DNA of 64,000 nt from Clostridia bacterium (GCA_017461765.1 JAFTXO010000027.1:9659-73658); one strand, 5' to 3'. Positions 1,476-39,070 are shown, numbered from the stretch's first letter. Notes: generated by a model not told the origin, from the letters alone. Translations and numbers: made by a program.

Positions 1476-1527
1476 AGAGCAAGAGTAAAAGGATAAACTT
1501 CCTTCTATTCTTGCTCTGTTCGTTTTT
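1476..1527 (+). terminator. Rho-independent terminator-like hairpin inside the DUF1846/recG gap
   Basis: AGAGCAAGA (1476-1484) pairs with TCTTGCTCT (1509-1517). An inner AAGGA/TCCTT stem is present, followed by GTTCGTTTTT. Confidence 0.5.
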
Positions 1528-1691
1528 ATGAATGAATTGATGCTTACGCATCATGAATTGGCTTCGCCATGATTTCTCGCTTCGCTCCATGAATTGAATT
1601 GCAACCAATGTGCCGTAAGGCACAATTCATGCCGCAGGCAATTCATGAAAGCACCGCTTTCAATTCACGCAGCCGTGAGGTTGCAATTCAT
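1528..1691. repeat. Compound palindromic element E1 (word CATGAATTG / CAATTCATG, 4+4 copies with GC mini-hairpin spacers)
   Basis: Left-arm words start at 1528, 1552, 1568 and 1587. Right-arm reverse-complement words start at 1623, 1639, 1661 and 1684. Spacers are ATGC-TTAC-GCAT, GC-TTC-GC (x2), the apex GTGCC-GTAA-GGCAC, GCC-GCA-GGC and GCAGCC-GTGA-GGTTGC. Confidence 0.75.
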
Positions 1692-1748
1692 AGCGTGTTC
1701 TCCGTTAAGGATAACACGCAATTTAGTCGGGATCTTTGTATTTTTTGA

Positions 1749-3902
1749 TTACGATATCGTTTGGGCATTTAAATTGCAAAGCTCCGAGACCTTTTTTCGC
1801 AATAGCTCATGCTCAGGCTTTGAGAGGGAGCGATCGTCTTTTAGTATTTCTCTTGCACATTCAAAGGCGTTGTGCAAAAGAATATTGTCGTTACAGGATT
1901 TCGCAATATTGAACCCGAGCTCACCCGATTGCCTTATCGAGTCGCTCGATGAGAAAAAGTCACCGGGACCTCTCATTTGAAGATCCTTTTCGGCAATAGT
2001 GTAGCCGTCGTAGGTCGTGTGCATTATCTGTAAGCGCTCCATTGATTTAGGACTTCTTGCATCCGAAACGAGAACACAAAACGACTGATCCTTACCTCTG
2101 CCGACACGTCCTCTTAGCTGATGTAGCTGCGAAAGACCGAAGCGCTCTGCATTTTCAACTATCATAAGCGTAGCATTCGGTACGTTTACACCGACCTCGA
2201 TAACAGTGGTCGAAACGAGAATGTCGATCTCGCCGTTTGCAAAGTGCATCATTATTTCGTCCTTTTCCTTGCATTTCATCTTTCCGTGTAAGAACTCAAC
2301 GGTAAGGTCGGGAAAGATATTTTCTTTAAGCTCCTTGGCGTAGTCAACAGCGGCTTTAAGCGGGGGAGTGTCGTCCTTTATATCAATTATGAACGGATTA
2401 TAGTCGGGAGTGTCAAGATCGTTTTCCTTCTTTTCCTCAACACTCGGACAAACTATATATACTTGATTTTTGTTTTCAACCTGCTTTCTTATAAAGGCGT
2501 TAAGACGCGATCTGTATGATGAATCGACACTGTATGTGTTGACCTTTTTTCGACCGGGTGGCATAGTGTCGATAAGAGATATATCAAGATCTCCATAGAT
2601 CATAAGCGAAAGTGTACGAGGGATCGGTGTCGCACTCATAACGAGCACGTGCGCGCTTGCGCTTTTCTCGGCAAGCTTCGCCCTCTGCATAACTCCGAAG
2701 CGGTGCTGCTCATCTGTTATTACAAGACCGAGATTTTTGAATTCCACACCCGTCTGTATAAGAGCGTGTGTACCTATTACAAAATCGGTATCTCCGCTTT
2801 TCAGGCGGGAGAGTATCTGATTTTTTTCTTTTTTCGGCGTAGATCCCGTTAGAAGCTCGCACTTGAGACCGAGTGAATTAAACATAGGAAAAAGAGAATC
2901 ATAATGCTGAAAAGCAAGTATCTCCGTAGGTACCATAAGCGCACACTGGTATCCGTTTTTGCACGCAATATAAGCGGCAACGGCGGCACATACGGTTTTT
3001 CCGCTTCCTACATCGCCGACAATTATTCTGTTCATAGGCCTTGTGAACATGGAAAAATCTGCGTCGGAAACGGCGTTTGTCGAACACATATCGCCACATA
3101 TATCGGATATTACCTTCTTTTGAGCATCGGTCAACTCATACGGAAGCATATCAACAAGAGGAGAAGCATCACCGTCATTCATTCGCGGCGCAAGCTTTGA
3201 GCTTGATACGGTTTTCATCTGTGAAAGCGAAAGCGCGAAAATAAAAAGCTCGTCAAAGGTAAGACGCTTTATGGCAGCGTGTAATGCTTCGTCACTTTCG
3301 GGAAAGTGTATGTTTTCAAGAGCAAAGGGAAGAGCACATAAATGATATTTGTATCGGATATCTGAGGGGATGTATTCTTTAATAAGAGTGGATATGCAAG
3401 GACGTATCTGAGAAACGAGCTTTGATATATATTTCTGAGTTACTCCTTGAAAAAGAGGATATATAGAAACAAAAGGCGGAAGCTCCTCCTCGCGTACACA
3501 AGGCTCGTAAGACGGTGAATTCAGCGACAGGGTGCGCTTTTCCTTTACGATCCTGCCCCAAAATCTGAATGTTGCGCCCGTTCTGAATACATCCTTTAAA
3601 TAGTTTTGATTGAAATAAGTAACGGTAATGCTTCCGCTATCGTCAAAGGCGCGAAATTTTAAAATATTCATACCTCTGCGTATCATAGCCACCTTCGGCT
3701 CGGAAGCGACCGTCAAAACGTAAGAGTGAGGCATATTATCAAACACAGGGGTGTCTATTTTATATACATCCTTGCGGTTTTGGTAGGCTCTCGGAAAATA
3801 ATAGAGCAGATCGTTTACCGTAAATATTCCGTTTTTATTAAAATATTGCTCGTACTTAGGGCCTACTCCGTATAGCTCGCCTATCGGTGTATCAAGTGTC
3901 AT
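1749..3902 (-). CDS. recG: ATP-dependent DNA helicase RecG
   Basis: 717 aa. The N-terminal wedge region (MTLDTPIGELYGVGPKY...), Walker A GDVGSGKT, DEQHRFG and the QLHQLRGRVGRG motif are typical of RecG. Confidence 0.93.
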   Translation of the reverse strand: MTLDTPIGELYGVGPKYEQYFNKNGIFTVNDLLYYFPRAYQNRKDVYKIDTPVFDNMPHSYVLTVASEPKVAMIRRGMNILKFRAFDDSGSITVTYFNQNYLKDVFRTGATFRFWGRIVKEKRTLSLNSPSYEPCVREEELPPFVSIYPLFQGVTQKYISKLVSQIRPCISTLIKEYIPSDIRYKYHLCALPFALENIHFPESDEALHAAIKRLTFDELFIFALSLSQMKTVSSSKLAPRMNDGDASPLVDMLPYELTDAQKKVISDICGDMCSTNAVSDADFSMFTRPMNRIIVGDVGSGKTVCAAVAAYIACKNGYQCALMVPTEILAFQHYDSLFPMFNSLGLKCELLTGSTPKKEKNQILSRLKSGDTDFVIGTHALIQTGVEFKNLGLVITDEQHRFGVMQRAKLAEKSASAHVLVMSATPIPRTLSLMIYGDLDISLIDTMPPGRKKVNTYSVDSSYRSRLNAFIRKQVENKNQVYIVCPSVEEKKENDLDTPDYNPFIIDIKDDTPPLKAAVDYAKELKENIFPDLTVEFLHGKMKCKEKDEIMMHFANGEIDILVSTTVIEVGVNVPNATLMIVENAERFGLSQLHQLRGRVGRGKDQSFCVLVSDARSPKSMERLQIMHTTYDGYTIAEKDLQMRGPGDFFSSSDSIRQSGELGFNIAKSCNDNILLHNAFECAREILKDDRSLSKPEHELLRKKVSELCNLNAQTIS

Positions 3903-3972
3903 TTAAAAGCCTCCTTTTTTTTAAAATTTTGTAGCCGAAAAGTATGAATTATCCACACTTAGTGGCATTTTT

Positions 3973-4008
3973 AAAATAAAAGCGTGGAAGAACCACGCTT
4001 TTTGATTT
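3973..4008 (-). terminator. Hairpin terminator downstream of the glucokinase gene (bidirectional shape)
   Basis: AGCGTGG (3981-3987) pairs with CCACGCT (3993-3999). It is flanked by A-rich sequence on the left and a T-run on the right. Confidence 0.6.
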
Positions 4009-4011
4009 TTA

Positions 4012-4971
4012 TTATCTGCCAAGAGCAGCAGCGCCGACGATGCCCGCGTCATTTCCAAGCTCGGCAATCTTTATCTCGGTCTGCTTGTCGCCTCTTGTAT
4101 ATGTTTCCTTAAAGATTTTTTCTTTAAGCGGAATCAAGAGGTAATCCTTTTCGTTGCACACACCGCCGCCTATTGAAAGAACATTAGGCTGGAAGATGTT
4201 TATAATAGTAGCAATACCGGAAGCAAGATAATCGATATATTCGTCAACGATTTCAGCACCAACCTTGTCGCCCTGCTTCATAGCCGCAAATGCAACTCGT
4301 GCGTTTACGTTCTCAAGCTTGCCGTCGATCATATCCTCAATAAGAGAATGAACGCCTGCCTCTCTTGCCTTGATAAGATGCTCCTTAGTCATATTAACAA
4401 GACCTGTAGCTGAGGAATATGTTTCCCAACAGCCCTTTCTTCCGCAAGAGCATTGCTTGCCGTCCTTTTGAATAACAACGTGACCAAGCTCAGCGCCTGC
4501 ATGGTTAAAGCCCGAATAAACGTTTCCGTCGATAACGATACCGCCGCCAAGACCTGTGCCGAGAGTGATCATAACAGAGAATTTAGCGCCCTTAGCTGCG
4601 CCTGCAACGGATTCAGCTTTGGCCGCCGCGTTAGCGTCGTTTTCTATGTAAACCTTTTCAATTCCGAGATATTCCTTCAAAAGATCTGCGATCGGGAAAT
4701 CACGGAAGGGAAGGTTGTTTGCGTATTCAACGATACCCGTTTCCGAGTTTGCAGTACCGGGTGAAGCGATGCCTGCGTAGGCTATATCGTCAAGGGTAAT
4801 ACCCATGTCGGAAATAAGCTTCTTGCAAAGATTAGCCATATCCTGAATTATGAGCTTTCCATCGCGATTTGCGAGGGTGGGAACACTGCCCTTCATAACG
4901 ATCTTGTGGTTTTCGTCAACTATACCTGCGGCGATATTGGTACCGCCGAGGTCAATACCTAAATAATACAT
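4012..4971 (-). CDS. glcK: ROK family glucokinase
   Basis: MYYLGIDLGGTNIAAG..., the ROK signature and the CxCGxxGCWE zinc motif (CSCGRKGCWETY) are present. Start chosen at M13 of the track ORF because AAGGAGAA lies 6 nt upstream. Confidence 0.9.
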   Translation of the reverse strand: MYYLGIDLGGTNIAAGIVDENHKIVMKGSVPTLANRDGKLIIQDMANLCKKLISDMGITLDDIAYAGIASPGTANSETGIVEYANNLPFRDFPIADLLKEYLGIEKVYIENDANAAAKAESVAGAAKGAKFSVMITLGTGLGGGIVIDGNVYSGFNHAGAELGHVVIQKDGKQCSCGRKGCWETYSSATGLVNMTKEHLIKAREAGVHSLIEDMIDGKLENVNARVAFAAMKQGDKVGAEIVDEYIDYLASGIATIINIFQPNVLSIGGGVCNEKDYLLIPLKEKIFKETYTRGDKQTEIKIAELGNDAGIVGAAALGR

Positions 4972-5447
4972 ATTAAGTTCTCCTTGGGAAATATTGCGTT
5001 TATACAATTTGATTATAAATTAAAATTCCCTCAAAGTCAATAAAGAAAGAGAATTTTGTAGAAAATATTTTTCGAAATTTCAAAACCATGTCAAACGAAC
5101 CAACTCGAAGCTTGATATTTACGGCGCTTTCAGGCTCACCGACTTTGCAATTCGGTATCAAAAATCATTATGTGTGAAAAGTTTGGAGAAATGGTGAACG
5201 CGTCAAAAAAAGCGTGTGAAATTTGTGCAATTTCAACAAATTGATAACATCAACAAAATATCATAAAGGAAGAAAGCTTTATCATTAAAAAAGTGCCTAA
5301 ATTAAAGGACTTTTAGCAGAAAAAAATATAAATAATTCGAAAAATGAAATTTAGAAAAATTTACATTTAAGACATATTTACAAATTTTTCGAACTTAAAA
5401 AATCTCAAAAAAGCATTTTTAAGAGTTTTATTATATAAAGAACTTCC

Positions 5448-5476
5448 TTGACTTTGACGGTTTTGTGTGTTAAAAT
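5448..5476 (+). promoter_or_regulatory. Sigma-A type promoter of the 5565-17892 operon
   Basis: TTGACT (5448-5453), 17-nt spacer, TAAAAT (5471-5476). The roughly 80-nt leader contains two hairpins (CACGTGC-GTAA-GCGCGTG and TTCCGCT...AGCGGAA) before the RBS GGAGGA. Confidence 0.55.
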
Positions 5477-5564
5477 TAGTTATGCACATTAAGACACGTG
5501 CGTAAGCGCGTGCTTGCATTTCCGCTATCGCTAAGCGGAATATAAAAAACATGGAGGATTTCTT

Positions 5565-8500
5565 ATGAGAACAAAAGCGAAAAAACTTCTGGCTATGCTT
5601 CTTTGCCTACTTATGTTGGTGGGCGTTTTAGCTATGCCGGCGGCTGCCGCTACGTCGGGTACGAAAGGCTCGTCGTCCTCGCTTACGGATATCAGCGAAT
5701 TGCTTAATGCTGATTCGTACAGTGAGTACAGCGAGAAGCTCGACAAGAACAAGGTGGCAACAGGAAAGGATAATATCGTTATCGATGTAGTAAAGAATGT
5801 GTACTACAACGAAGAGGATATTGTCAACAACACAACCGTTGATTTCGAGGTCAAGAAGGGCGTAGAGACCGACGAAAACGGAAATGTCAAGGAATACACT
5901 TACATAGTAATCCCCTCTCCGTCGGGAAGTGAGAATAAAATCACTTGGAAATTCAACGTTGAGACAGAGGGTCGTTACGTAATCGAGATCGAGTACCGTC
6001 AGGCAGAAGGCGGCAAAACAAACTCTATCGAGAGAATATTCTCTTTGAACGGAGAAGTTCCCTTCTCGGAAGCTCGTTCTGTCGTTTTGTCTAAGGTTTG
6101 GAAGTACGATTATCTCAAAGACAGTAACGGAAAATACGTTATGAAAGACGGCCATTATATGTTTGATACCGATGCAAACGGAAATGATATCCGTCCTTCT
6201 GTAAGTCAGGACGCTCAGTGGGTATCTTACGTTATATCCGACGCCAACGGATACTACACCGCACCCTTTGAGTTCCACTTCAAGCAGGGAGAGAACACTA
6301 TCTCTCTTGACAGTACAAGAGAAGGTGTTGAAATAAGATCGATAAAGATCTATCCCCGTCAAGAAGATATGACATATGACGAGTATATCAAGCAACACGG
6401 AGATATTGCTTCAAACAGAGGCTCTGCCGAGATAAAGATCGAGGCTGAAGCTCCTACCAATGTTTCGAATGTAACCATGTATCCTCTCTACGACAGAACT
6501 TCTGCTATCACGAGCGGTCTTACGGGCGCTCAGTCTGCGCAGGTTCAGAAGTATAATATCATGGGCGGAACGCAGTGGCAGACAGTCGGTGAATGGGCTA
6601 CATATACGATAACCGTTCCCGAGGGCGGAGAAGGCTATTACGGTATAGCCTTGCGCTATAAGCAGGATCTTCTTAACGGTATGTACGTATCCCGTAAGGT
6701 ATACATAGACGGCGTTATGCCTTATGCTGAGGCATCTGCGTGCAAGTTCAACTATGATACCGCTTGGAACATTCAATATCTCACATCGGCTGACGGTACA
6801 GAGCTTCAGTTCTATCTCACAGAGGGAACACACGAAATAAAGCTCGAGGCAGTTCTCGGAGACATGGGTCCTCAGATCCAACAGGTAAAGGAATCGCTTA
6901 CTAACATCAACAACTGTTACCTTGAGATACTTAAGCTTACAGGAAGTAACCCCGACTCTAACCGTTCCTACGGCTTTGCAAGAGTAATGCCTGAGGTTCT
7001 TGAAACATTCATTCTTGAATCTCAGAACATAAAAGAGGTTTATGAATATTTGACCGATGTAACAGGTCTTAAGGGCGAAAAGGCATCAACGCTTGAGCAG
7101 CTTTACCTACTTCTTTATAAAATGGGTATGGACGAGTCTCAGATCGCAGGAAACCTTGAAACTCTTAAATCACAGATAGGTACACTCGGTACTTGGATAA
7201 ATGATGCATCAACATCTCCTTTGGAGGTTGATTACATTTTAGTACAAAGCACTAATGAGGAATTACCGGATGGCGACGCTAATTTCTGGGAAGCGCTTTG
7301 GTACGAGATCAAGCTTTTCTTCTACAGCTTTGTAACTGACTACAGCGGTATGACAAGCTCAAATGAGGCTGCCGCAATTACAGTTGGCGATCCTATAGAA
7401 GTTTGGGTTGCGACAGGTCGTGATCAAGCACAAATCATAAGAAATCTTATAGATAGCCAATTTTCAACGATCAAGCAGGTGGATACCGATGGCGACGGTG
7501 TTCTGGATGCGGGATATAAAGCGAACCTGAAGCTGATTTCAACAGGAACGCTGCTGCCGTCAGTTCTGGCGGATGCGGGCCCTGACGTATCGTTAATGGA
7601 ATCAAGCGGAAATACCATTGACTTCGCTTTGCGTAATGCAGTAACTCCTCTTAATGAGTTTATCGATGAGGATCTTGAAAACGGTATAGACGTTCTTTCT
7701 TGGTATCCCGAGGAGGCAACTATTCCGTTAAGACTTCATGACTGTAGCCAGAATGCAGAGAACGAGATCACCTATTACGGTCTTCCCGATTCACTTACAT
7801 TCTCAATGCTTTTCTACCGTAAGGACATTCTTGCTCAGCTCGGATACGATAATCCCGACGAGCAGCTCAAGACATGGGATGACTTGCTTGCAATGATACC
7901 GATACTTCAATATAATAATATGGAAGTAGGTATTCAGAATGATATTTATATGTTCATATATCAAAGCGGAAGCGAAGCGTACTCGAACGGCGGTATGACG
8001 ATCAACTTTGACGATCCGATAGTTCTTAACGCATTCACTACACTTTGTAATATGTATACACAGTATTCGCTCTCATACCAATATGACTTTGCAAACCGTT
8101 TCAGAACGGGTGAAATGCCTATCGGTATCTCAGCTTATACATCATGTAACCAGCTTTCAGTATTCGCATCGGAGCTTTCGGGACTTTGGACATTTAAGCC
8201 GCTTCCCGGATACCTTGAATACGATGAAAACGGAAACCAGATATTTGATGAAAACGGCAATCCTTCGATAAATAACTCCGCTATCGTTACTGTAACATCT
8301 ACTATAATGTTAAGAGCGTCTGATTCACTTTCCAACGCAGAGGTTGAGGAAAGAAACGAAAAGGCATGGGAGTTTATGAAGTGGTATACGGGTGCTGACT
8401 TCCAAGAAGCATACGCAAATGAAATGGTATCGATACTCGGCTTGGCAGCAAGACCTGCTACGGCAAATATCGAAGCGCTTGCAGAGCTTCCTTGGACAAA

Positions 8501-8744
8501 CGAAGAATATCAGGCTATAAGCGCACAATTTGAAAATCTCGAGGCAGTTCCGAACTATCCCGGAAGCTATTACCTCGCAAGATACGTAAACTTCGCATTC
8601 CTCGCAGCTTATAATGAAGGTGCAGATCCTGCGGACTCGCTCCTCAGCTACGTAACTACGATCAATAAGGAGCTTACGAGAAGAAGAATAGAATTCGGCA
8701 TGGACTACATAGATTCCGACGGAATTTACCGTGTCATAGACTAA
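5565..8744 (+). CDS. Giant secreted protein: two CBM-like beta-sandwich modules, a helical linker and a family-1 extracellular solute-binding-like C-terminal half
   Basis: 1059 aa. Type-I signal peptide (…VLAMPAAAATSG) with no lipobox Cys. Modules around GRYVIEIEYRQAEGG and GYYGIALRYKQDL resemble CBM6/35-type folds. The C-terminal roughly 450 aa resembles sugar-binding SBPs. Confidence 0.7.
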   Translation: MRTKAKKLLAMLLCLLMLVGVLAMPAAAATSGTKGSSSSLTDISELLNADSYSEYSEKLDKNKVATGKDNIVIDVVKNVYYNEEDIVNNTTVDFEVKKGVETDENGNVKEYTYIVIPSPSGSENKITWKFNVETEGRYVIEIEYRQAEGGKTNSIERIFSLNGEVPFSEARSVVLSKVWKYDYLKDSNGKYVMKDGHYMFDTDANGNDIRPSVSQDAQWVSYVISDANGYYTAPFEFHFKQGENTISLDSTREGVEIRSIKIYPRQEDMTYDEYIKQHGDIASNRGSAEIKIEAEAPTNVSNVTMYPLYDRTSAITSGLTGAQSAQVQKYNIMGGTQWQTVGEWATYTITVPEGGEGYYGIALRYKQDLLNGMYVSRKVYIDGVMPYAEASACKFNYDTAWNIQYLTSADGTELQFYLTEGTHEIKLEAVLGDMGPQIQQVKESLTNINNCYLEILKLTGSNPDSNRSYGFARVMPEVLETFILESQNIKEVYEYLTDVTGLKGEKASTLEQLYLLLYKMGMDESQIAGNLETLKSQIGTLGTWINDASTSPLEVDYILVQSTNEELPDGDANFWEALWYEIKLFFYSFVTDYSGMTSSNEAAAITVGDPIEVWVATGRDQAQIIRNLIDSQFSTIKQVDTDGDGVLDAGYKANLKLISTGTLLPSVLADAGPDVSLMESSGNTIDFALRNAVTPLNEFIDEDLENGIDVLSWYPEEATIPLRLHDCSQNAENEITYYGLPDSLTFSMLFYRKDILAQLGYDNPDEQLKTWDDLLAMIPILQYNNMEVGIQNDIYMFIYQSGSEAYSNGGMTINFDDPIVLNAFTTLCNMYTQYSLSYQYDFANRFRTGEMPIGISAYTSCNQLSVFASELSGLWTFKPLPGYLEYDENGNQIFDENGNPSINNSAIVTVTSTIMLRASDSLSNAEVEERNEKAWEFMKWYTGADFQEAYANEMVSILGLAARPATANIEALAELPWTNEEYQAISAQFENLEAVPNYPGSYYLARYVNFAFLAAYNEGADPADSLLSYVTTINKELTRRRIEFGMDYIDSDGIYRVID

Positions 8745-8770
8745 TGGAAATACTGTAAAGGAGAGAGAGA

Positions 8771-9817
8771 ATGACTGAAAAAGATTTAAACCAAACAGTT
8801 GAAGCGCGTAAAATAACTCGCAGAGAATTTCAACGCGTTTATCCCGAAACAATCAATAGTATTTCCACCGAAGAAGCAAACAAGAAAAGAGTGGTTGCAA
8901 GAAAAGACATTAGCCTGTTTCAGTTCACTGTTCGTGAAATGAAGAGATATAAAATAGCTTATCTTATGATAGCTCCGTTTATGTTCGTATTCATACTCTT
9001 TACACTTTTCCCCGTATTGCTTTCAGCTATCCTCAGCTTCACATCATTCAATATGCTTGAGATGAACTGGGATATGTTCATAGGACTTGATAACTATACA
9101 AGATTGTTCTTTGAAGACGATATATTCCTTCAGGCATGTAAGAACACACTCGTGTTTGCGGCAATAACAGGCCCTGTATCTTACATACTCTCATTCGTTG
9201 TAGCTTGGTTTATAAACGAGCTTTCACCGAGAATAAGAGCATTGGTAACACTCGTCTTCTACGCTCCTTCTATTTCGGGAGCAGCATACACCATTTGGGG
9301 CGTTCTTTTCTCAGACGACGCTTACGGATGGGTAAACGGAACTCTTATAGACCTCGGACTTCTTGATTCGCCGGTCCTTTGGTTCCACGATGAAAAATAC
9401 GCAATGACGCTTTGTATCGTAGTAGCGCTCTGGATGTCACTCGGTACTGCATTCCTTTCCTTCATAGGAGGCTTGCAGACGATCCGTAAGGATATTTTTG
9501 AAGCTGCTGCGGTTGACGGAATTAAAAACAGATGGCAAGAGCTTTGGTTTATAACCCTTCCCGAAATGAAAAATCACCTTATGTTCGGTGCGGTAATGTC
9601 GATCACGGGTGCGTTCGGCTTCGGTTCGGTAGTAACACAGCTTTGCGGATTCCCGTCAGTAAACTATTCATGTCACACTATCATGCACTGTCTTGAGGAC
9701 TACGGTTCACAGAGATGGGAGGTAGGATACGCATCCTCAATAGCTGTTGTACTCTTCCTTATAATGATAGGCGCAAATATGCTTGTTAAGAAAATACTTT
9801 CAAAGGTAGGACGATAA
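8771..9817 (+). CDS. Sugar ABC transporter permease (MalF/UgpA type), pair 1
   Basis: 348 aa, multi-TM, with EAA loop EAAAVDGIKNRWQELWFITLPEMK. It carries a roughly 55-aa charged N-terminal extension. Confidence 0.88.
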   Translation: MTEKDLNQTVEARKITRREFQRVYPETINSISTEEANKKRVVARKDISLFQFTVREMKRYKIAYLMIAPFMFVFILFTLFPVLLSAILSFTSFNMLEMNWDMFIGLDNYTRLFFEDDIFLQACKNTLVFAAITGPVSYILSFVVAWFINELSPRIRALVTLVFYAPSISGAAYTIWGVLFSDDAYGWVNGTLIDLGLLDSPVLWFHDEKYAMTLCIVVALWMSLGTAFLSFIGGLQTIRKDIFEAAAVDGIKNRWQELWFITLPEMKNHLMFGAVMSITGAFGFGSVVTQLCGFPSVNYSCHTIMHCLEDYGSQRWEVGYASSIAVVLFLIMIGANMLVKKILSKVGR

Positions 9818-9818
9818 T

Positions 9819-10700: not shown

Positions 10701-10710
10701 GGGAGGACTT

Positions 10711-26144: not shown

Positions 26145-26151
26145 ATAAAAA

Positions 26152-26181
26152 ACGGAGCTTCAATTTGAAGCTCCGTTTTTG
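26152..26181 (+). terminator. Terminator of thrC-thrB-ACT operon
   Basis: ACGGAGCTTCA-ATT-TGAAGCTCCGT followed by TTTTTG. Confidence 0.85.
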
Positions 26182-26353
26182 TTATAAAGTAAACCACCAT
26201 CAGTGCTGGTGGTATCCAAAAGCTTTAGCTATGCACAGTTCCTGTCACAGTGGAAGGCTACCTTTACACAAGAGAGGCTTTTTACACGCAAGTGCGCACT
26301 TACTCACCACCTATTGTGGTAGTGTAATAGAAAACAAATTAAACAACTAAAAT

Positions 26354-27949: not shown

Positions 27950-28525
27950 TTATACATATTCAATATTCATAGAAATAAGAGAGATATAGCGTAGCCGCTT
28001 CATCTTTAATGATCTGCTGCCGAATACACCGATATCAACAGCTTCCCAAAGAAAGACCCAAGCCATAATATCTATCACTTCGGACCAAATAGCGCTGCCT
28101 GTTCGGTATTCAAAGATCACACGAAAAGCAAGAACGAAAATTCCAAGAAGCGTCAAGGTAAGCACGATAAGAGCATTTCTTTTAAGCTCGCGCTCGTTTG
28201 CTATGTATTTTTGAGTGAAAAATTCCTTTGTCGCTTTTCTGTAAAGCGTTTGCTCCTGTTCATCTATACAGTCACTGTGAATACGCAAGGTCAATAGCTC
28301 TCCCGGTACGACCGAGCTTGCACTGCTTTCAATAAAATCCGCAACATCATTTGCAATAACGGGAGTGTCATTTTCCGAAAATACCGAAAGAAAATTGGCA
28401 TCGTCCTTTACGGTCATGTTTATAATGACACGACCTTCGCTGTCACGCTCCTTAATAGCTTCGTTTGCACGACGGTCAGCTTCCTTTTTTGCTTCACGTA
28501 AAGTATTTTTAGCCTTTTTATTCAT
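27950..28525 (-). CDS. Small membrane protein of unknown function
   Basis: 191 aa. Charged N-terminal half with two to three C-terminal TM helices. There is a 3-nt gap after the ABC gene. Confidence 0.6.
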   Translation of the reverse strand: MNKKAKNTLREAKKEADRRANEAIKERDSEGRVIINMTVKDDANFLSVFSENDTPVIANDVADFIESSASSVVPGELLTLRIHSDCIDEQEQTLYRKATKEFFTQKYIANERELKRNALIVLTLTLLGIFVLAFRVIFEYRTGSAIWSEVIDIMAWVFLWEAVDIGVFGSRSLKMKRLRYISLISMNIEYV

Positions 28526-28528
28526 TGC

Positions 28529-31198: not shown

Positions 31199-31308
31199 TT
31201 GTTTCCCTTCTTTTCAAATTTAAATAAAATATAAAAATATTATAATAATAACTTTTTGAAAAGTCAATATTATTTCTTATAAATTCATATAATATTTAAA
31301 TTTCCGTT

Positions 31309-32556
31309 TTACCGCCACAAAACAAAGAGGAAAATTATGTTTAATATAGCCATAAGCGCGATCACAAGATCGGATATCTGCCACACTGCTCCCATTGGAA
31401 TAAAAGCGCAGAGCGCGCACACCGAAACAAAGATCACAGACAAAAGAATATTTGCCCATCTTCGCTTCGTTATGAAATCAAGAGATCTTTTCGCGTAGTA
31501 ATACTGACAAATTACTGTCGCGAAGGCAAATAAAAGACAGGAAATTATAATAAAATATCTTCCGAAGTCACCTAAAAAGCTTTCAAAGGATGAGGATACA
31601 GCTTCCATAGCGTCAGTAGAGGATGTTCCGCTAAGCAGAATAACCAAAGCTGTCAGAGTACATAAAACAGTAGTATCTATAAAAACCTCTAAAATGCCAA
31701 AACACCCTTGGGAGTGTGCGTCATTTTCACTTTCTGCGTGCGCGCAGGGTGATGTTCCGCAGCCCGCTTCGTTTGATAAAAGTCCTCTTGAAATACCGTA
31801 TCTCATAGCTGAAGCTATACCGTATCCGCAAAAGCCGCTCACAGCACTTCTAAAAGAGAAGGCTTCTTCAAATATCATCTCAAAAACCCCGCCCAAGTGT
31901 CGATAATTTGATATTATTATATATAATGAAATGAATATATATGAAAAAGTAAGAATAGGGATCATCACCGTACAGGTGCTTCGTATCCTCTTTCCACCGC
32001 CTATCACGATTATAAGAACACAGAGTGCAAAAATAAAGCAAAAAATGCTTTTTTGCATAGGGAGTGACGATGAAACCGCATTTATCTGAACTAAATTTCC
32101 CGTGCTGAGTGAATTTAAAATACATAGGAAGGCAAAAATCATAGCAAAAATTTTTCCGTTCACTCCGTATTTTTCCGAAAGACCGTCGTTTATGTAGTAT
32201 GGAGCGCCGCCTATATATCCACGCTCACTCACGCGTCTGTATTTTATAGCAAGAAAAACCTCGGCGTATTTAAGACTCATCGCGATAAAAGCACTCATTA
32301 TCATCCAGAATACCGCACCCGCACCGCCCGAAATTATCGCGCTTGCTACACCGACGATATTTCCGACACCAAGTGTACCCGATAATGCAACGCAAAGAGA
32401 AGCTGCGCCGCCCTTACCCGAAAAGACCTGCTTTACAGTCTTTATCGGATGCAGAATGAAAAAGCCCTTCAATTTAATAATAAAGTATATTCCGAAAATT
32501 AAAAGAGTTATCGGCAAAATAGCTCCGCAAAGCACCGAATTTATTTTTTCAAGCAT
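31309..32556 (-). CDS. Alanine/glycine:cation symporter (AGCS) family transporter
   Basis: The multi-TM sequence with GTLGVGNIVGVASAI is typical of AGCS. Start moved to M41 of the track ORF (MLEKINS...) because GGTGGTGA precedes it. Confidence 0.8.
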   Translation of the reverse strand: MLEKINSVLCGAILPITLLIFGIYFIIKLKGFFILHPIKTVKQVFSGKGGAASLCVALSGTLGVGNIVGVASAIISGGAGAVFWMIMSAFIAMSLKYAEVFLAIKYRRVSERGYIGGAPYYINDGLSEKYGVNGKIFAMIFAFLCILNSLSTGNLVQINAVSSSLPMQKSIFCFIFALCVLIIVIGGGKRIRSTCTVMIPILTFSYIFISLYIIISNYRHLGGVFEMIFEEAFSFRSAVSGFCGYGIASAMRYGISRGLLSNEAGCGTSPCAHAESENDAHSQGCFGILEVFIDTTVLCTLTALVILLSGTSSTDAMEAVSSSFESFLGDFGRYFIIISCLLFAFATVICQYYYAKRSLDFITKRRWANILLSVIFVSVCALCAFIPMGAVWQISDLVIALMAILNIIFLFVLWR

Positions 32557-32648
32557 AAAATCACCACCAAATAAAATATATTCAAGAATGGATGTGATAT
32601 CACCGAAAAACCAAATGTTAATTATTTGTGAACAATAGCCCTGACCCC

Positions 32649-32677
32649 TTGATTTTACGGAGCGTACAATATACAAT
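32649..32677 (+). promoter_or_regulatory. groES promoter
   Basis: TTGATT (32649-32654), 17-nt spacer, TACAAT (32672-32677). Confidence 0.6.
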
Positions 32678-32682
32678 AGTAA

Positions 32683-34672
<1,990 letters not shown>

Positions 34673-34688
34673 TAGATAGGAGATAAAA

Positions 34689-35024
34689 ATGGACGAAAAA
34701 AACATGGAGCAAGAAGAAATAGATCTTCTTGATATCCTGCTCGACGAGGAAAATGAAGAACCGATAGTTCTTTTTGATGAGCAAGATAACCCCACGACCT
34801 TTGAGCAAGCAGCTATAATTCCCCTTGAAGAAAAGCTTTATTGTATCTTAGTGCCCGTTGATAAGATCGATGGTGTCGGAGAAAATGAGGGTGTTGTATT
34901 TGAGATCATCACCTCTGATACCGAGCCAACGACTCTTAACGTAGAGACGAGCGATGAGATTATCGATAAGGTGTTTGAAAAATACGAACAGCTCTTTGAT
35001 GAAGAGTACAGGCTAAAATCATAA
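34689..35024 (+). CDS. DUF1292 domain-containing protein
   Basis: 111 aa, acidic, with a pattern like ...IVLFDEQDNPTTFEQAAIIPLEEKLYCILVPV.... RBS AGGAGA lies 16 nt after the groEL stop, with no intervening terminator. Confidence 0.75.
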   Translation: MDEKNMEQEEIDLLDILLDEENEEPIVLFDEQDNPTTFEQAAIIPLEEKLYCILVPVDKIDGVGENEGVVFEIITSDTEPTTLNVETSDEIIDKVFEKYEQLFDEEYRLKS

Positions 35025-35050
35025 AAGCTCGACTTTCGTCGAGCTTTTAT
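35023..35050 (+). terminator. Terminator after groES-groEL-DUF1292
   Basis: AGCTCGAC-TTTC-GTCGAGCT followed by TTTT. Confidence 0.8.
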
Positions 35051-35131
35051 GATTTTAAATCAATTGGAATGTAACTTGAAAATTATTTTCAAGTGTGGTA
35101 AAATATATAAAAATGCTCTTTCGGAGGATTT

Positions 35132-35737
35132 ATGATAAAAACATTTTCTTCGGGACTTCTTGACTCAAACACGTACGTCGTGTGGAATGAAGCTCTTCAT
35201 GCAATGATAATAGATTGCGGAAACGATATTTGTAAAATATCTGAATTTATAGAAAAAACGGGACTCTGTGTCGATTATATAGTCTTAACACACGCTCATT
35301 ACGATCATATTGCATATATTGATGAGTATGTAGAAGCATACCCGAAAGCCAAGCTAATATGCCACAGGGAAGAGCTTTGTGTGGTAAATGACAGTGAAGC
35401 AAATCTCTCCGCATTTTTCGGCAAGGCAAGGAGCTACGATCATGAATATGAAACCGTTGATGACGGCGATATAATAACGCTTGAAGATGAAAACGGCGAG
35501 GAAAGTGTCGATTTTCGTGTTATTCACGCTCCGGGACACACACCGGGATGTATCTGTTTTTTTAATGAAAAGGATAGAATAATGTTCACAGGTGATGTCC
35601 TTTTTGCAGAAGGCTACGGCAGAACGGATCTTAAATACGCAGATCCCGAAAAAATGCGTTCAACGCTCTATAAGCTTCTTCCACGTGTCAAAGGAGTGAA
35701 AATTTACCCCGGACACGGAGACACCGCAATATTTTGA
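35132..35737 (+). CDS. MBL-fold metallo-hydrolase (glyoxalase II-like)
   Basis: 201 aa with an intact THAHYDH motif and later HAPGHTPG and D/H ligands. Confidence 0.85.
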   Translation: MIKTFSSGLLDSNTYVVWNEALHAMIIDCGNDICKISEFIEKTGLCVDYIVLTHAHYDHIAYIDEYVEAYPKAKLICHREELCVVNDSEANLSAFFGKARSYDHEYETVDDGDIITLEDENGEESVDFRVIHAPGHTPGCICFFNEKDRIMFTGDVLFAEGYGRTDLKYADPEKMRSTLYKLLPRVKGVKIYPGHGDTAIF

Positions 35738-35855
35738 TATTGAAGGCTTAGATAAAAGGCTCAGTTTTGTCTTGAGACTGAGCCTAAATAAAAAATAAGA
35801 TAAGACGTATACGAAAATATTTTAGTAAAAAAATAAAAATTAAGCAAAATAAGTA

Positions 35856-35884
35856 TTGACAATTAAGGAAAAACATGATATAAT
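35856..35884 (+). promoter_or_regulatory. Consensus sigma-A promoter for tRNA-Gln
   Basis: TTGACA (35856-35861), 17-nt spacer, TG-n-TATAAT (-10 at 35879-35884). Confidence 0.8.
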
Positions 35885-35903
35885 GCTTAAGCATAAATTA
35901 TAT

Positions 35904-35979
35904 TGGGATATAGCCAAGCGGTAAGGCACCAGACTTTGACTCTGGCATCTCGGTGGTTCGAACCCACCTATCCCAGCCA
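35904..35979 (+). tRNA. tRNA-Gln (anticodon UUG), CCA encoded
   Basis: The acceptor stem TGGGATA pairs with TATCCCA. The anticodon stem CCAGA pairs with TCTGG, with loop CTTTGAC (TTG at 35936-35938). T-arm is GGTGGTTCGAACCCACC and the 3' end is GCCA. Confidence 0.93.
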
Positions 35980-35987
35980 ACAAAAAA

Positions 35988-36020
35988 CGCACTTTTGTCT
36001 ACCGACAAAGGTGCGTTTTT
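35988..36020 (+). terminator. Terminator after tRNA-Gln
   Basis: A 12-bp stem, CGCACTTTTGTC-TACC-GACAAAGGTGCG, followed by TTTTT. Confidence 0.85.
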
Positions 36021-36215
36021 AATGATGTTTGCCTTCGGCAAATGATGTTGGCTTCGCCAATGATGACGGCTACGCCTAATAATGCATGGCTACGCCACAT
36101 TTTATGGCAAACATCGCATCATTGCGGCACGAAGTGACGCAACATCATATTTGCAAAACAAATGCATCATATCGCCGTAAGGCGATGCATCATTGAAGAT
36201 ATACAAGGCTTCGCC
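36021..36215. repeat. Compound palindromic element E2 (word AATGATG / CATCAT(T), 4+4 copies with GC mini-hairpin spacers)
   Basis: Left-arm words are at 36021, 36041 and 36059, plus a degenerate copy at 36079. Right-arm words are at 36117, 36143, 36165 and 36188. Spacers are TGCC-TTC-GGCA, GGC-TTC-GCC, GGC-TAC-GCC (x2), CAC-GAA-GTG, CGCC-GTAA-GGCG and GGC-TTC-GCC. Confidence 0.75.
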
Positions 36216-36244
36216 TTGATTTATTGGCGGAAGTGTGGTATATA
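36216..36244 (+). promoter_or_regulatory. Sigma-A promoter directly abutting E2
   Basis: TTGATT (36216-36221), 17-nt spacer, TATATA (36239-36244), preceded by TGG. Confidence 0.5.
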
Positions 36245-36268
36245 AACAAGAGATTGGAGGTGACGGTA

Positions 36269-36802
36269 TTGAAACGCGAAGAAGCCTTTTATTATATGAA
36301 TTTGTTGTTATTGGGCTTTTCTGATGGCTATGATGATTGGTTGAATTATTATTTAGAAACAGAATCTCCATTGAGTGATATTGTATTAGAACTTTCTCTG
36401 TGCGGCTCGGATGTAAACAAAACCGTATCCCTGTTACACAATTACTGTACGGAACAAGAATTTGACAAGTCTGTTTCTCATGACAAATTGCGACTGTTTT
36501 TCAAAGACGCCTATCATTCAAATAGGATGAGCAAAGAAAAAGTACTATCTACTATGTACCGTCTGTCCTTGAATGTTGGTGATCCAGGAGATTTTGATAT
36601 TAAATTATGGGGTAGCATGTACTATCTCGATTATTACTACGGCTTGGCTTTAGATGGCGTAATCCCGATGGAAAATTTTGATTTTGCTTTTTTCTCATAC
36701 CTTGATAATGGAACGCCGCTCGATTCAGATCTTATTTTGAGAAAAAACATTAAAAAGAAACCGTCATTCCTTGATAAAATTAAAAGCTTTTTTAAAAGAT
36801 AA
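36269..36802 (+). CDS. Hypothetical protein (all-alpha looking, immunity-protein-like small cassette gene)
   Basis: 177 aa when started at TTG 36269, 8 nt after GGAGGTGA (the track ORF starts at 36224). No family recognised. Confidence 0.55.
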   Translation: MKREEAFYYMNLLLLGFSDGYDDWLNYYLETESPLSDIVLELSLCGSDVNKTVSLLHNYCTEQEFDKSVSHDKLRLFFKDAYHSNRMSKEKVLSTMYRLSLNVGDPGDFDIKLWGSMYYLDYYYGLALDGVIPMENFDFAFFSYLDNGTPLDSDLILRKNIKKKPSFLDKIKSFFKR

Positions 36803-36874
36803 TCATAACCGGACACCTTTTGTTCGCAATTACCTCAATTTTTGACCTTTTATCACGTTTAAGACAGATAAACG

Positions 36875-36902
36875 AAAAACGAACCACTTCGGTTCGTTTT
36901 TT
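36875..36902 (+). terminator. Terminator after the 36269 gene
   Basis: CGAACC-ACTTC-GGTTCG followed by TTTTTT. Confidence 0.8.
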
Positions 36903-36915
36903 GTTTATCAGTTAT

Positions 36916-37110
36916 ATTCGCCTTATGGCGAGTTCTATTGCTTTGCAGTGATATTACTTCGTAGTGATATTGCCTTCGGCAGTTGAAAGTAACAGGGCGA
37001 ATATAATATCACTGTGAGCGATGCGAACAATATCACTATGCGTAGCATAATATCACTTCAACGCAGTTGAAATATCACTTAATCGATGCTATACTTATTA
37101 TGAGGTGATA
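36916..37110 (+). repeat. Compound palindromic element E3 (word GTGATATT / AATATCAC, 4+4) including promoter and RBS
   Basis: Left-arm words are GTTATATT, GTTCTATT and GTGATATT (x2). There are four right-arm AATATCAC words. The 3' end carries TTGAAA (37067-37072), 17-nt spacer, TATACT (37090-37095) and GAGGTGA (37102-37108). Confidence 0.8.
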
Positions 37111-37113
37111 ACA

Positions 37114-37469
37114 ATGTCAAATAGCATTTTAAGAGATAAATCAAAGGATTTTGCAAAGCAAATTGTCATTCTTTGCAAAAACATAAAAGCCAATTTAAGG
37201 AATCAGTTTTAACTAATCAGCTTTTGCGTTCCGGCACAAGCATTGGTGCTAATATACACGAAGCTCAATACGCACAAGGCAAGAAGGATTTTATATCAAA
37301 GCTTGAAATTGCACAAAAGGAATGCTACGAAACCGAATATTGGCTTGAGCTTTTATTTGAAACAGGCTATATGTCAGAATCGGAATACAAGCCTATTCAA
37401 AATGAATGTGGTGCTATTCGCAGAATGTTAATTTCATCTATAAATACCACTAAAGCCAATTTGGAGTAA
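37114..37469 (+). pseudogene. Four-helix-bundle protein (23S rRNA intervening-sequence protein family), frameshifted
   Basis: The N-terminal part MSNSILRDKSKDFAKQIVILCKNIK is in one frame (stop at 37210-37212). The rest, SQFKESVLTNQLLRSGTSIGANIHEAQ...ETEYWLELL, is in another frame. The junction is the A4 run at 37185-37188. Confidence 0.7.
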
Positions 37470-37519
37470 CAAACTAATATGCTATAATTAAGTCAGAAAT
37501 ATAGTAAAGGAGAACAAAT

Positions 37520-38023
37520 ATGCCTATTTGGTACGAAGTTGAACATTCGAAAACAGGTATTTATAACTTTATGGAATGTAATTGGCATTTTCACGATTTT
37601 GAGATTGAACGCATTAGTTATTTGCCTGATGAAAATTCAGTAGAACTTTTTTTGAAGTATGATGAATTAAAGGGGAGTGTAATTCTTAGATTTATCAATG
37701 TATACTCTATGAATGTAATGTTTAAAGTAGAATATGGAAGCTTAGATAACATTATGGGAAGCGTTTTGCTCTTAACACAAAATGGACAGTTTTTGTGGAT
37801 TGATAATGATTCGTGGGGTGATAAAAGCAAGCACCATATTGAAGAACTCAAAAAAGAGTCTTCGTGGGTACAAGCTGAAAACATCATTTGGGCGGTTACT
37901 GATGAATATGGAAATCCTACCGAAATGCCTGCAAATAAAATTGACCAAGTATGGCAAATTTACGGTAAAATAGAGCATCATCATTTTGATTTGAAACCTT
38001 ATAATGGGAACAATCAGGAATAG
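37520..38023 (+). CDS. Hypothetical protein (small cytoplasmic, immunity-protein-like)
   Basis: 167 aa. RBS AAGGAGAA lies 6 nt upstream. No family recognised. Confidence 0.6.
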   Translation: MPIWYEVEHSKTGIYNFMECNWHFHDFEIERISYLPDENSVELFLKYDELKGSVILRFINVYSMNVMFKVEYGSLDNIMGSVLLLTQNGQFLWIDNDSWGDKSKHHIEELKKESSWVQAENIIWAVTDEYGNPTEMPANKIDQVWQIYGKIEHHHFDLKPYNGNNQE

Positions 38024-38072
38024 TTAGAATTTTATTTAGTTTCGGTTCAATTTTCGCACATCCTGTTCAGAC

Positions 38073-38103
38073 CAGTTGAATTCTCAACTGAGTCTTTTAT
38101 TTT
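38073..38103 (+). terminator. Hairpin terminator after the 37520 gene
   Basis: CAGTTGA-ATTC-TCAACTG followed by AGTCTTTTATTTT. Confidence 0.5.
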
Positions 38104-38136
38104 CGGCTTGGGATTGGATTATGGTTCTCACCATTT

Positions 38137-38877
38137 TTATTTTGCGAATACAATCTCGTTGACAATCTCGCAAATCTGTGTAATTATATCAAGGTCAAGC
38201 TCCATAAATGGCAAGGGCTCTACACGCTTACCTGTGAGGGTAGCTAACCAGGTTAGGGCAACGGCATATCTTCCGTAGGTATGAGACATATGGAAGCCGT
38301 CGCAGCACAGGGACTCTCCGCCGTTTGCATAATCAAAGGCGGGCACTCGCTCACGAAGTGCCTGAATAACGTCACCTGCCGGAATCATTGTCGCACCAAT
38401 TGCCAAGCATGCGGACTCCGAGGCACAACGAAGTGCTTCGTACATCTTTTTTTGATCGCAATCATATAGTGGAAAATCTCCGTGGGTTGAGTCAATTTCA
38501 TATGCCCACGTGCGATGAAAATATAGATCCGCACTCGGTTGATGCTTACGTACATACGCGGCAAGGTCGTTAAGATATGGCTGATAGGTTTCATACTGTC
38601 CGGAAAAATGGCTTACCTGCTGTAAGGTGACAATGTCAAAATGCTCATTTTTCAGGATTTGCTCAATTGTAACACGATCATCCTTCCACGCATCACCATT
38701 TATGATATGCAAATAATTTGCATTTCCCTGTACTACGTTTTCCCAGTGTGTCTGAAGGCTGCAACCGCCAATAGCCAAATTAACCGTTGTCAAATTCACG
38801 CCTCTCTGTTCTGCCAAAGCATGCAAATACGCATGCGCATCTATTGAAAAGCTATTACCAATAGATAAAATTTTCAT
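38137..38877 (-). CDS. DUF4886-like SGNH-fold hydrolase family protein
   Basis: MKILSIGNSFSIDAHAYL... Start set at M55 of the track ORF because GGAGGA lies 7 nt upstream. The longer ORF would run into repeat E4. Confidence 0.7.
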   Translation of the reverse strand: MKILSIGNSFSIDAHAYLHALAEQRGVNLTTVNLAIGGCSLQTHWENVVQGNANYLHIINGDAWKDDRVTIEQILKNEHFDIVTLQQVSHFSGQYETYQPYLNDLAAYVRKHQPSADLYFHRTWAYEIDSTHGDFPLYDCDQKKMYEALRCASESACLAIGATMIPAGDVIQALRERVPAFDYANGGESLCCDGFHMSHTYGRYAVALTWLATLTGKRVEPLPFMELDLDIITQICEIVNEIVFAK

Positions 38878-38905
38878 ACCGCAATCCTCCGTTGGTTTTT
38901 TCTTA

Positions 38906-38934
38906 AGTTTAGCATATTTTCTTGCATTTTGCAA
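38906..38934 (-). promoter_or_regulatory. Promoter of the DUF4886-like gene with overlapping inverted repeat
   Basis: The minus strand reads TTGCAA, 17-nt spacer, TAAACT. The perfect inverted repeat TTCTTGC-ATTTT-GCAAGAA (38919-38937) overlaps the -35. Confidence 0.5.
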
Positions 38935-38961
38935 GAAAAATATATCTATCCATCCAAGATG

Positions 38962-39070
38962 ATTCGCCTTCGGCGAGTTATATTGCTTTGCAGTGATATT
39001 ACTTCGTAGTGATATTGCCTTCGTCAGTTGAAATATCACTTAATCTATGCTATACTTTTTACGAGGTGAT
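38962..39070 (+). repeat. Element E4: shortened near-identical copy of E3 including promoter and RBS
   Basis: About 95 percent identical to E3 over its length but lacks 84 nt between two CAGTTGAAA 9-mers. It carries TTGAAA (39028-39033), 17-nt spacer, TATACT (39051-39056) and GAGGTGA (39063-39069). Confidence 0.85.

Follow-up and report, generated by a model that had tools for sequence, protein, structure and literature searches.

Two-armed mini-hairpin arrays related to the Gut-1 motif in intergenic spacers of a Clostridia genome

We analysed a stretch of 64,000 nucleotides from a Clostridia bacterium (GCA_017461765.1, JAFTXO010000027.1:9659-73658; hereafter the window, with positions counted from its first letter), in which an earlier note, made from the sequence, had pointed out four intergenic hairpin arrays, E1 to E4. 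All four were found at the positions given there, E1 to E3 being arrays of four plus four units and E4 a single arm. They represent four copies and three linker families within 40 kb of the 64-kb window, which is ordinary chromosome, and a k-mer census of the window revealed no further such array. As summarized in Table 1, E1 sits between the convergent genes DUF1846 and recG and has no promoter, E2 follows a tRNA-Gln gene and precedes a gene encoding 177 amino acids (aa), E3 separates the latter from a gene of the '23S rRNA IVP' family (IVP gene), and E4 precedes a cyclase gene.

Table 1. Features in and around the four arrays, with a repeat of related loci in the last row
Feature	Position	Strand	Description
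Terminator-like hairpin and T-run of DUF1846 gene	1468..1527	+	abuts E1 on the distal-arm side
E1	1528..1691	- (polarity)	4+4; TGAATTG x4 then CAATTCA x4; linker ATGAATTG/CAATTCAT
E1 arm 1	1595-1691		closed by 12-bp stem, 1595-1606 / 1679-1690, 100% complementary
E1 arm 2	1528-1597		
Hairpin between recG stop codon (1749) and E1 start	1693..1719	-	without T-run
tRNA-Gln	35904-35979	+	
Intrinsic terminator of tRNA-Gln	35983-36020	+	loop TCTACCGA; directly abuts E2
E2	36021..36194	+	convergent 4+4; (A)ATGATG x4 then CATCAT x4; linker family ATGATGTT
E2 arm 1	36021-36096		
E2 arm 2	36117-36194		
E2 closing stem	36024-36033 / 36106-36115		10 nt, 100% complementary; GATGTTTGCC / GGCAAACATC
Remnant, last unit of a divergent-type element	36195..36244 (entry includes -10)	+	GAAGATATA plus CAAGGC-TTC-GCCTTG; basis: comparison with L022, L010, L023
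Promoter of 177-aa gene	36216-36221 (-35), 36239-36244 (-10)	+	-35 TTGATT, -10 TATATA, 17-nt spacer
177-aa gene	36269-36802	+	unknown function; homologues P0001-P0120
Bidirectional-type intrinsic terminator of 177-aa gene	36867..36909	listed on both	ends ...TTTTTTGTTTATC; directly abuts E3
E3	36910..37080	+	convergent 4+4; AGT(G/T)(A/C)TATT x4 then AATATCAC x4; GTGATATT family
E3 arm 1	36910-36981		
E3 arm 2	37005-37080		
E3 closing stem	36912-36922 / 36996-37006		11 nt, 100% complementary; TTATATTCGCC / GGCGAATATAA
E3 promoter	37067..37095	+	TTGAAA-17-TATACT, TG-extended; linker AATATCAC in spacer
'23S rRNA IVP' four-helix-bundle gene (PF05635)	37114..37469	+	directly downstream of E3; PF05635 match on 37224-37469
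E4	38955..39040	+	single arm, 94.5% identical to E3 arm 1, plus one right-hand 8-mer AATATCAC
E4 promoter, of cyclase gene	39028..39056	+	TTGAAA-17-TATACT, upstream TG; paralogue of E3 promoter
~110-nt tandem repeat of DUF1846-recG spacer in relatives	L024 5560-5990, L025 5995-6160, L026 11490-11610, L027 4550-4800		

Besides the window, about 70 related loci were looked at (L followed by a number); the relatives are annotated solely as Clostridia, Oscillospiraceae or Ruminococcaceae metagenome-assembled genomes (MAGs), one of them a water-deer caecum MAG. The comparison set comprised 56 elements with GTGAAAT-family linkers, all unique and complete, drawn from IMG/VR and from metagenome contigs, together with orthologues and paralogues of E2 and E3. 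Hairpins and loops were read on the strand on which the linker reads RTGA... (linker-sense). Searches by other routes yielded little: blastn against annotated phages and plasmids gave no match, the centre pattern of the E3 family gave only chance matches in IMG/VR, and the results of broad two-repeat patterns were swamped by unrelated tandem repeats.

In every element, an AT-rich 7- to 9-mer linker alternates with GC-rich mini-hairpins, and the two arms are inverted. The linkers are conserved across species while the hairpins change; all linker families contain RTGAW...T, and their spacing varies from 16 to 24 nt, the "spacers" being palindromes of 7 to 17 nt. The mean hairpin score of the inter-linker spacers was 5.83 versus 3.20 ± 0.09 in shuffles (z of about 28), and single-strand folds of the elements gave z values of -4.3 to -4.5 against shuffles. 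Among 153 unique hairpins of the largest family, 845 of 870 stem pairs (97%) are Watson-Crick pairs, though the stems differ among copies, and a C-G pair closes the loop in 135 (88%). Ninety of these hairpins carry triloops, 64 of which are TNC and none GNA. The same bias was seen in 87 unique hairpins from the window and relatives (TTC 20, TTAC 8, TGC 8, TTT 7, TAC 5; 34 TNC versus 0 GNA), whereas C-G-closed mini-hairpins elsewhere in the window showed none (6 TNC and 9 GNA among 102 triloops). The shared grammar and the sorting of loops by arm, both proposed in the earlier note, are thus real. With TNC loops on the linker-sense strand, the opposite strand therefore bears C(GNA)G; GTAA-type GNRA loops also occur among the element hairpins.

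The elements of the window are convergent, with RTGA units followed by their complements. The opposite, divergent arrangement, with GNA-type loops on the left and TNC loops on the right, was found in L008, L010, L018 and L022, and the coupling of loop to linker is identical in both. Loop sorting is the fixed orientation of each linker-plus-hairpin unit, with the two arms inverted. Two simple accounts of the architecture were rejected: the mini-hairpins are not tiny insertions that each duplicate the 8-mer, as they are position-specific homologues across copies and arm size is constant, nor is the array an invertible switch or shufflon, as a convergent element could not be turned into a divergent one, or the reverse, by inversion, and a search for an invertase gave none.

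A long-range stem closes arm 1. This arm begins with a linker variant and the 5' half of the first hairpin, a stretch complementary to the element centre; of 55 elements, 50 have a central 11-mer that pairs with the element start and encloses 69 to 77 nt, and eight different variable hexamers occur in the stem, each with its own matching partner (covariation). Long-range pairing and element structure were examined by an anchor-based analysis, because RNAalifold on a MAFFT alignment, which we set aside, returned mainly invariant linker-linker pairs. Closing stems, generally of 11 to 13 bp, were found with unrelated sequence in E1 (TGAATTGCAACC / GGTTGCAATTCA on the minus strand), E2, E3 and L008, whose orthologue of E3/E4 has one of 13 bp, and in the 50 of 55 elements with this pairing the closed arm is the terminator-proximal one. 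The unit is about 175 nt long: 12 complete elements, measured from where arm 1 begins up to the last linker, are 172 to 182 nt; the span from first to last detected linker is 129 to 204 nt in the 56 elements (median, 153.5 nt).

The arrays occupy a fixed place relative to transcription signals. The earlier note had E1 to E3 starting just after a terminator T-run and E2 to E4 ending at a promoter -35 box, and this was borne out at each site: E2 and E3 directly abut their terminators, E1 follows the T-run at 1523-1527, and the promoters are TTGATT-17-TATATA (E2) and TTGAAA-17-TATACT (E3 and E4). The hairpin before E1 (-26.5 kcal/mol, z = -5.6, followed by TTCGTTTTT) was overlooked by a simple terminator scan because of its long loop. 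The E2 promoter was not listed by the promoter scanner; its orthologue in L022 reads TTGATT-17-TATAAT. The last hairpin and last linker of E3 fall within its promoter. In the comparison set, a T-run lies at most 60 nt upstream of 46 of 54 elements (85%), and a CCA end with an A-run, i.e., a tRNA/tmRNA-type 3' end plus terminator, precedes 33 of 56 (59%). Downstream, a promoter-like site (TTGnnn-16..18-TAnnnT, at most 90 nt from the element) is present in 20 of 51 elements (39%) versus 7.1% of the control windows used as background; in 8 of the 51 it begins 0 to 2 nt past the last linker, versus 0.56% of controls. A co-directional open reading frame (ORF) starts within 150 nt downstream in 30 of 49. 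These counts extend the order terminator, element, promoter beyond the window, statistically and with a direction. The hairpin AAAAAGCACTTGCA...TGCAAGTGCTTTTTT, a terminator, precedes elements after a tRNA fragment, a tmRNA-like end or unrelated sequence. The same terminator follows three unrelated upstream sequences; it is part of the unit and travels with it. The terminator type of tRNA-Gln is likewise found ahead of related elements in L008, L010, L022 and L014.

Comparison of relatives revealed rapid turnover. Upstream of the 177-aa gene, three states occur among homologues: a complete divergent-type element (L022 and L010; L008 also holds the divergent type at this locus), a convergent element of the ATGATGTT family followed by the last divergent unit (E2 in the window), and a GTGAAAT-family element followed by the last two divergent units (L023). 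In the window, the 3' half of the remnant unit carries the -35 box of the 177-aa gene; an element of the same linker family as E2 lies at 7840-8013 of L014. In L021 and L022, the spacer downstream of this gene is free of any element, the promoter coming straight after the terminator. E1 is absent from the DUF1846-recG spacer of relatives at 83 to 92% aa identity, which contains other repeats. E4 corresponds to E3 from which 84 nt, located between two GCAGTTGAAA direct repeats, are missing. Across about 1.2 kb spanning the element, L276 and L289 can be aligned at about 96%, with tRNA fragment, terminator, arm 2 and downstream DNA in common, and their arm 1 is wholly different, including the covarying closing stem; the boundaries of the swap are the element start and centre. 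L284 has two complete elements in tandem, single-armed copies are found in L179 and L281 as well as E4, and several linker families occur per genome. On these comparisons, the elements are not cis-regulators conserved at particular genes. In E3 and L276, arm 2 is flanked by direct repeats of 10 and 17 nt that resemble remnants of neighbouring units, and the element centre may be a recombination hot spot (L179/L214, L281).

Some further observations were made at these loci. In place of E1, relatives carry in their DUF1846-recG spacer another repeat, in tandem and about 110 nt long, that has a GTAC(A/G)C...GTAC hairpin. The 177-aa gene has a different genomic context in nearly every relative, and its contigs are mostly about 1 kb long, consistent with repeats on both flanks breaking the assemblies. 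L179 (at 9872) and L214 (at 355) are contigs that share phage genes, a tmRNA-like end, terminator and arm 1, with homology stopping exactly at the boundary between arm 1 and centre. L014 contains three to four direct copies (4410-4620, 5140-5335, 5860-6020 and about 8050) of a fragment of about 190 nt that resembles a tmRNA 3' end and terminates in ...CTCTCCTTCTCCGCCA; a terminator, a promoter and a small ORF come after each copy, and the copies look like tandem islets integrated at ssrA. ARAGORN made no call on this fragment, and its sole Rfam hit was a weak, truncated tmRNA match. In L209, L222, L278 and L279, the sequence after arm 2 resembles, by eye, a truncated C terminus of an IS256-family transposase (...VMCTTNAVESINSS...).

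Each arm appears to be the Gut-1 RNA motif (Rfam RF01706), of which E3 and E4 are borderline members and E1 and E2 divergent variants. Gut-1 was described in 2010 in one sentence and from human-gut environmental sequence only (Weinberg et al. 2010, Genome Biol 11:R31; PMC2864571), and our literature search found nothing beyond that line. Its hallmark, three covarying hairpins separated by a repeated conserved linker, is what the elements display, and the flanks of the published seed alignment already contain a second, inverted arm after a tRNA or terminator. Against the gathering threshold of 50 bits, the arms of the window all scored lower: 48.8 for E3 arm 1 (36909-36975, +), 42.3 for E3 arm 2 (37025-37116, -), 43.7 for E4, 23.0 for the right arm of E1 (1619-1693, -) and 20.1 for the left arm of E2 (36020-36087, +). 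An Rfam scan of L014 returned Gut-1 twice, as a left arm with 63.1 bits (+) and a right arm with 52.1 bits (-). The two-arm inversion, the locus-specific linker families, the closing stem, the travelling terminator, the polarity, the downstream IVP gene and the rapid replacement between related genomes go beyond the Rfam model and the original paper.

Among neighbouring genes, the IVP gene (PF05635) starts about 50 nt past the last linker in 12 of 49 GTGAAAT-family elements (24%), and it also follows E3 and the divergent-type element of L008; varied small enzyme genes come after it. Proteins of PF05635 are relatives of Avd of diversity-generating retroelements. IVP genes without an upstream array exist (L360 and L394). 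Large serine recombinase genes recur near five elements, and in L281 (4100-4300) such a gene lies directly upstream of a truncated element that retains only terminator, arm 1 and centre. As separate observations, the IVP gene was noted downstream of elements in L284, L308, L315, L317, L320, L358, L368, L376 and L380, and the copy in the window seems to have a frameshift within an A-run near 37185-37199, its first 29 codons lying in one frame and the remainder corresponding to the ORF 37173-37469. Part of the window genes were covered by recorded Pfam families or by Pfam searches, and these gave no transposase, integrase, HUH, RAYT (REP-associated tyrosine transposase; REP, repetitive extragenic palindrome) or IS200-type gene.

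The reading that we favour, tentatively and at somewhat less than even confidence, is that E1 to E4 and Gut-1 are a dispersed intergenic DNA module resembling REP, BIME (bacterial interspersed mosaic element) and REPIN (REP doublet) sequences, capped by a terminator, two-armed and sometimes promoter-bearing, which folds when single-stranded and marks the boundary of a transcription unit. The unit is polar and runs from its own terminator (A-run, GC stem, T-run) through arm 1 and the inverted arm 2, in many cases to a promoter that points outward and adjoins or overlaps the final unit; arm 1 has three or four perfect mini-palindromes, between which the same AT-rich, TGA-containing linker recurs, and is closed by the 11- to 13-bp stem. 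When the region became single-stranded, as lagging-strand template, mobilisation intermediate or read-through RNA, the palindromes would snap into mini-hairpins, the strand bearing C(GNA)G loops would fold especially well, and the inverted linkers could zip both arms into a branched rod. Such folding might keep the stems perfect, via selection or via palindrome correction by template switching, and might also render the unit recombinogenic and replaceable. A unit in place would set the next promoter apart from the transcription unit that precedes it, which is very often a tRNA or tmRNA gene.

The earlier note had suggested function at the single-strand level, and function or maintenance at that level is the best reading of the Watson-Crick pairing maintained despite variable stems, the C(GNA)G loops and the covarying long-range stem; that the folded strand is DNA, we infer. 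Loop chemistry favours DNA, in that the hyperstable DNA mini-hairpin has a C-G-closed GNA triloop (review PMC13037366), while no true C(UUCG)G tetraloop is formed. Between the mechanisms listed in the note, namely insulation or 3'-end protection, replication-associated hairpins and recognition by an HUH enzyme, the evidence singles out none.

Several points weigh against the DNA module. Wobble pairs, equally rare on both strands, are uninformative for DNA: G.T/T.G and A.C/C.A pairs number 7 and 8 in 870, and 2 and 2 in 390 pairs of the upstream intrinsic terminators, and the test does not tell DNA from RNA because intrinsic terminators, which act as RNA, are equally perfect. Gut-1 was rated as certainly RNA and not cis-regulatory (PMC2864571). 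Because we found no target-site duplication, no pair of empty and filled alleles and no transposase, mobility is deduced solely from patchiness and replacement. As for traits of miniature inverted-repeat transposable elements, the outer linkers are inverted and no consistent duplication was seen; the empty analogous spacers that exist are not strictly orthologous. Clustering of neighbour genes revealed no recurrent enzyme, transposase-like or RAYT family adjoining the 56 elements, and the sole strong recurrent neighbour, IVP, is non-enzymatic. Finally, the conservation of length, architecture and polarity across many hosts, together with the fixed -35 offset, is no less compatible with a selected cis function than with a selfish repeat.

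A structured RNA is the strongest alternative, which we consider unlikely but a serious contender; either each arm would be a small RNA (sRNA), or the whole element would act in cis in read-through RNA, as a back-up terminator or a block to exonucleases, with the gene downstream insulated and the 3' end upstream protected. The strong stem covariation, the assignment by the Rfam curators and PMC2864571, the polarity fixed relative to flanking transcription and the GTAA-type GNRA loops all suit RNA, and the wobble counts are compatible with it; in addition, the genes on either side of E1 converge, so that each of them reads into an arm that is "sense" to it. The context, however, argues against Gut-1 being a non-coding RNA with a transcription unit of its own: since the unit starts 0 to 13 nt past an efficient-looking terminator and ends at a promoter, there would be no room for a promoter of its own, and no terminator follows an arm. 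Moreover, because convergent and divergent arrangements occupy one and the same locus, no RNA sense is fixed relative to transcription. The internal hairpins lack U-tracts, triloops predominate over tetraloops, and identical linkers within a copy would favour RNA misfolding.

Improbable, in our judgement, is an array of operator or activator sites in double-stranded DNA, in which the 7- to 9-mers would be half-sites for a protein controlling the adjacent promoter, be it the IVP product or a ParB/Noc- or CRP-like factor. Its attraction lies at the promoter end, where the last linker abuts or overlaps the -35 box far above background, an E3-family linker falls within the promoter spacer twice in the window and in L008, and the IVP gene recurs downstream; the conservation of linkers over hairpins and the RTGAW...T common to all families agree with it. 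GTGAAAT/ATTTCAC is one base per half-site off the parS and Noc-box half-sites. Yet for the three different linkers present within 64 kb, three proteins would be required, or a single protein of very low specificity, linker spacing is inconstant, E1 and many other copies have no promoter, and elements are replaced or absent at orthologous promoters. Nor would a double-stranded site explain the perfect palindromic spacers, the C(GNA)G loops or the long-range stem. By-eye resemblances to extended -10 decoys and to Fur, CRP, CcpA, DnaA and sigma-H boxes were partial and family-specific and were dropped, as were N4-type hairpin promoters and G4-type priming sites, for which no supporting context was seen.

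Also improbable, to the same degree, is the idea that Gut-1 arrays and IVP proteins form one system, the array being the nucleic-acid ligand or operating site and terminator, array, promoter and IVP gene a self-insulated module that spreads downstream of tRNA/tmRNA genes in gut Clostridia and prophages; if true, two orphan families would gain a function together.

Least credible of all is a recombination, attachment or fragile site used by integrating elements downstream of tRNA/tmRNA genes, with the arms as arm-type sites and the centre as crossover. The frequent tRNA-/tmRNA-like CCA ends upstream, the position of many elements less than 2 kb from provirus contig ends, the breakpoints of L179/L214 and L276/L289 and the serine recombinase family (5 loci, including L281) speak for it. 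Against it, the window, which is ordinary chromosome, holds four copies within 40 kb, the Pfam families mentioned above include no integrase, several linker families occur per genome, loops of 3 to 4 nt are too short for the overlap region of a tyrosine recombinase, in L286 and L214 the element is situated past the duplicated tmRNA fragment, within the host flank, and the breakpoints are equally explained by palindrome-stimulated deletion between direct repeats flanking each arm (E3/E4).

Since 2010, Gut-1 has stood in Rfam as an "RNA gene" without context or function. On our analysis, this motif makes up one half of a larger, polar element, which runs from terminator through array to promoter and is very often placed after a tRNA or tmRNA gene; the Rfam model misses linker families, and the element turns over like a REP-type repeat. 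The orphan motif thereby yields testable hypotheses (boundary element, single-stranded DNA folding, IVP partner), annotators are warned that Gut-1 sRNA calls may be DNA repeats, and the arrays offer a natural example of hyperstable GNA mini-hairpins in series. If the boundary function is true, they would provide a compact natural insulator part for Clostridia.

Three known kinds of element were set apart. An integron attC site was rejected, as the element sequences have no R''/L''-L'/R' boxes (RYYYAAC / GTTRRRY) and no integrase was seen in the same part of the window genes. A CRISPR array was rejected on repeats of 7-9 nt (not 24-48), spacers that are palindromes of 7-17 nt (not about 30), inverted arms and the absence of cas from the Pfam families on record for the genes around E2 to E4. 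An array of intrinsic terminators was rejected because only the flanking terminators have a U-tract, the internal hairpins being followed by GTGAAAT/ATTTCAC-type linkers.

REP, BIME and REPIN sequences, which are RAYT-associated in Proteobacteria, come closer. Like the elements here, they are multi-copy, GC-rich extragenic palindromes that follow genes and terminators, form inverted doublets or clusters with conserved linkers, occur as several families per genome, vary among strains, fold as single-stranded DNA and have side effects on termination and mRNA stability. The REPIN description of an inverted doublet unit, multi-copy, extragenic and strain-variable, fits. However, the REP palindrome itself, of 20-40 nt, imperfect and with a GTAG-type head, is conserved, whereas in the present elements conservation is limited to linker, loop type and geometry, the stems being free to vary. 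Each arm has three to four hairpins, terminator and promoter are part of the unit, and no RAYT was found in the genes examined. A search of the window for GTAGGGGCG-type motifs gave none. REP-like GTAGGGGCG...CGCCCCTAC hairpins were seen in inverted pairs in the relatives L010 (14960-15260) and L012 (3255-3300) and are absent from the window; two further hairpin-dense spacers of the window, at 26170-26330 and 56500-56760, lack repeated linkers, have a (G)TCTCCCTTTACACAAGGGAGAC-type hairpin in common and may be a small repeat or an sRNA.

The Correia elements of Neisseria and the pneumococcal BOX elements are likewise modular and palindromic, about 100-200 nt long, inserted between genes with a variable number of modules, and can provide outward promoters and terminators. 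Correia elements differ in their 26-nt terminal inverted repeats and TA duplication, a signature not found here, and BOX in its modules of 45-60 nt of conserved sequence. To our knowledge, arrays of GNA mini-hairpins that alternate strands arm by arm have not been described. At the level of the single hairpin, the likeness is to d(GCGAAGC)-type DNA mini-hairpins (Hirao and colleagues; PMC13037366), whose C-G-closed GNA triloops on very short GC stems dominate one strand of every arm; the latter are a physicochemical motif, not a genetic element.

The closest relative is Gut-1 itself. It shares the three GC-rich hairpins with UUC-type loops, the GUGAAAU-like linkers and the origin in gut metagenomes of uncultured Clostridia; relatives exceed its gathering score, and E3 and E4 fall short of it by 1-8 bits. 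The Rfam model, in contrast, covers one arm and GUGAAAU/GUGAUAU linkers only, E1 (ATGAATTG) and E2 (ATGATG) reaching 20-23 bits, whereas the elements described here have two inverted arms in either order, a closing long-range stem, their own terminator and often a promoter, in a genomic context that leaves no space for an sRNA promoter. They are also not confined to the human gut, several related contigs coming from other metagenome assemblies and one relative being the water-deer caecum MAG. Structurally, the element is thus new as a form that extends an orphan family already known, rather than as a kind of its own.

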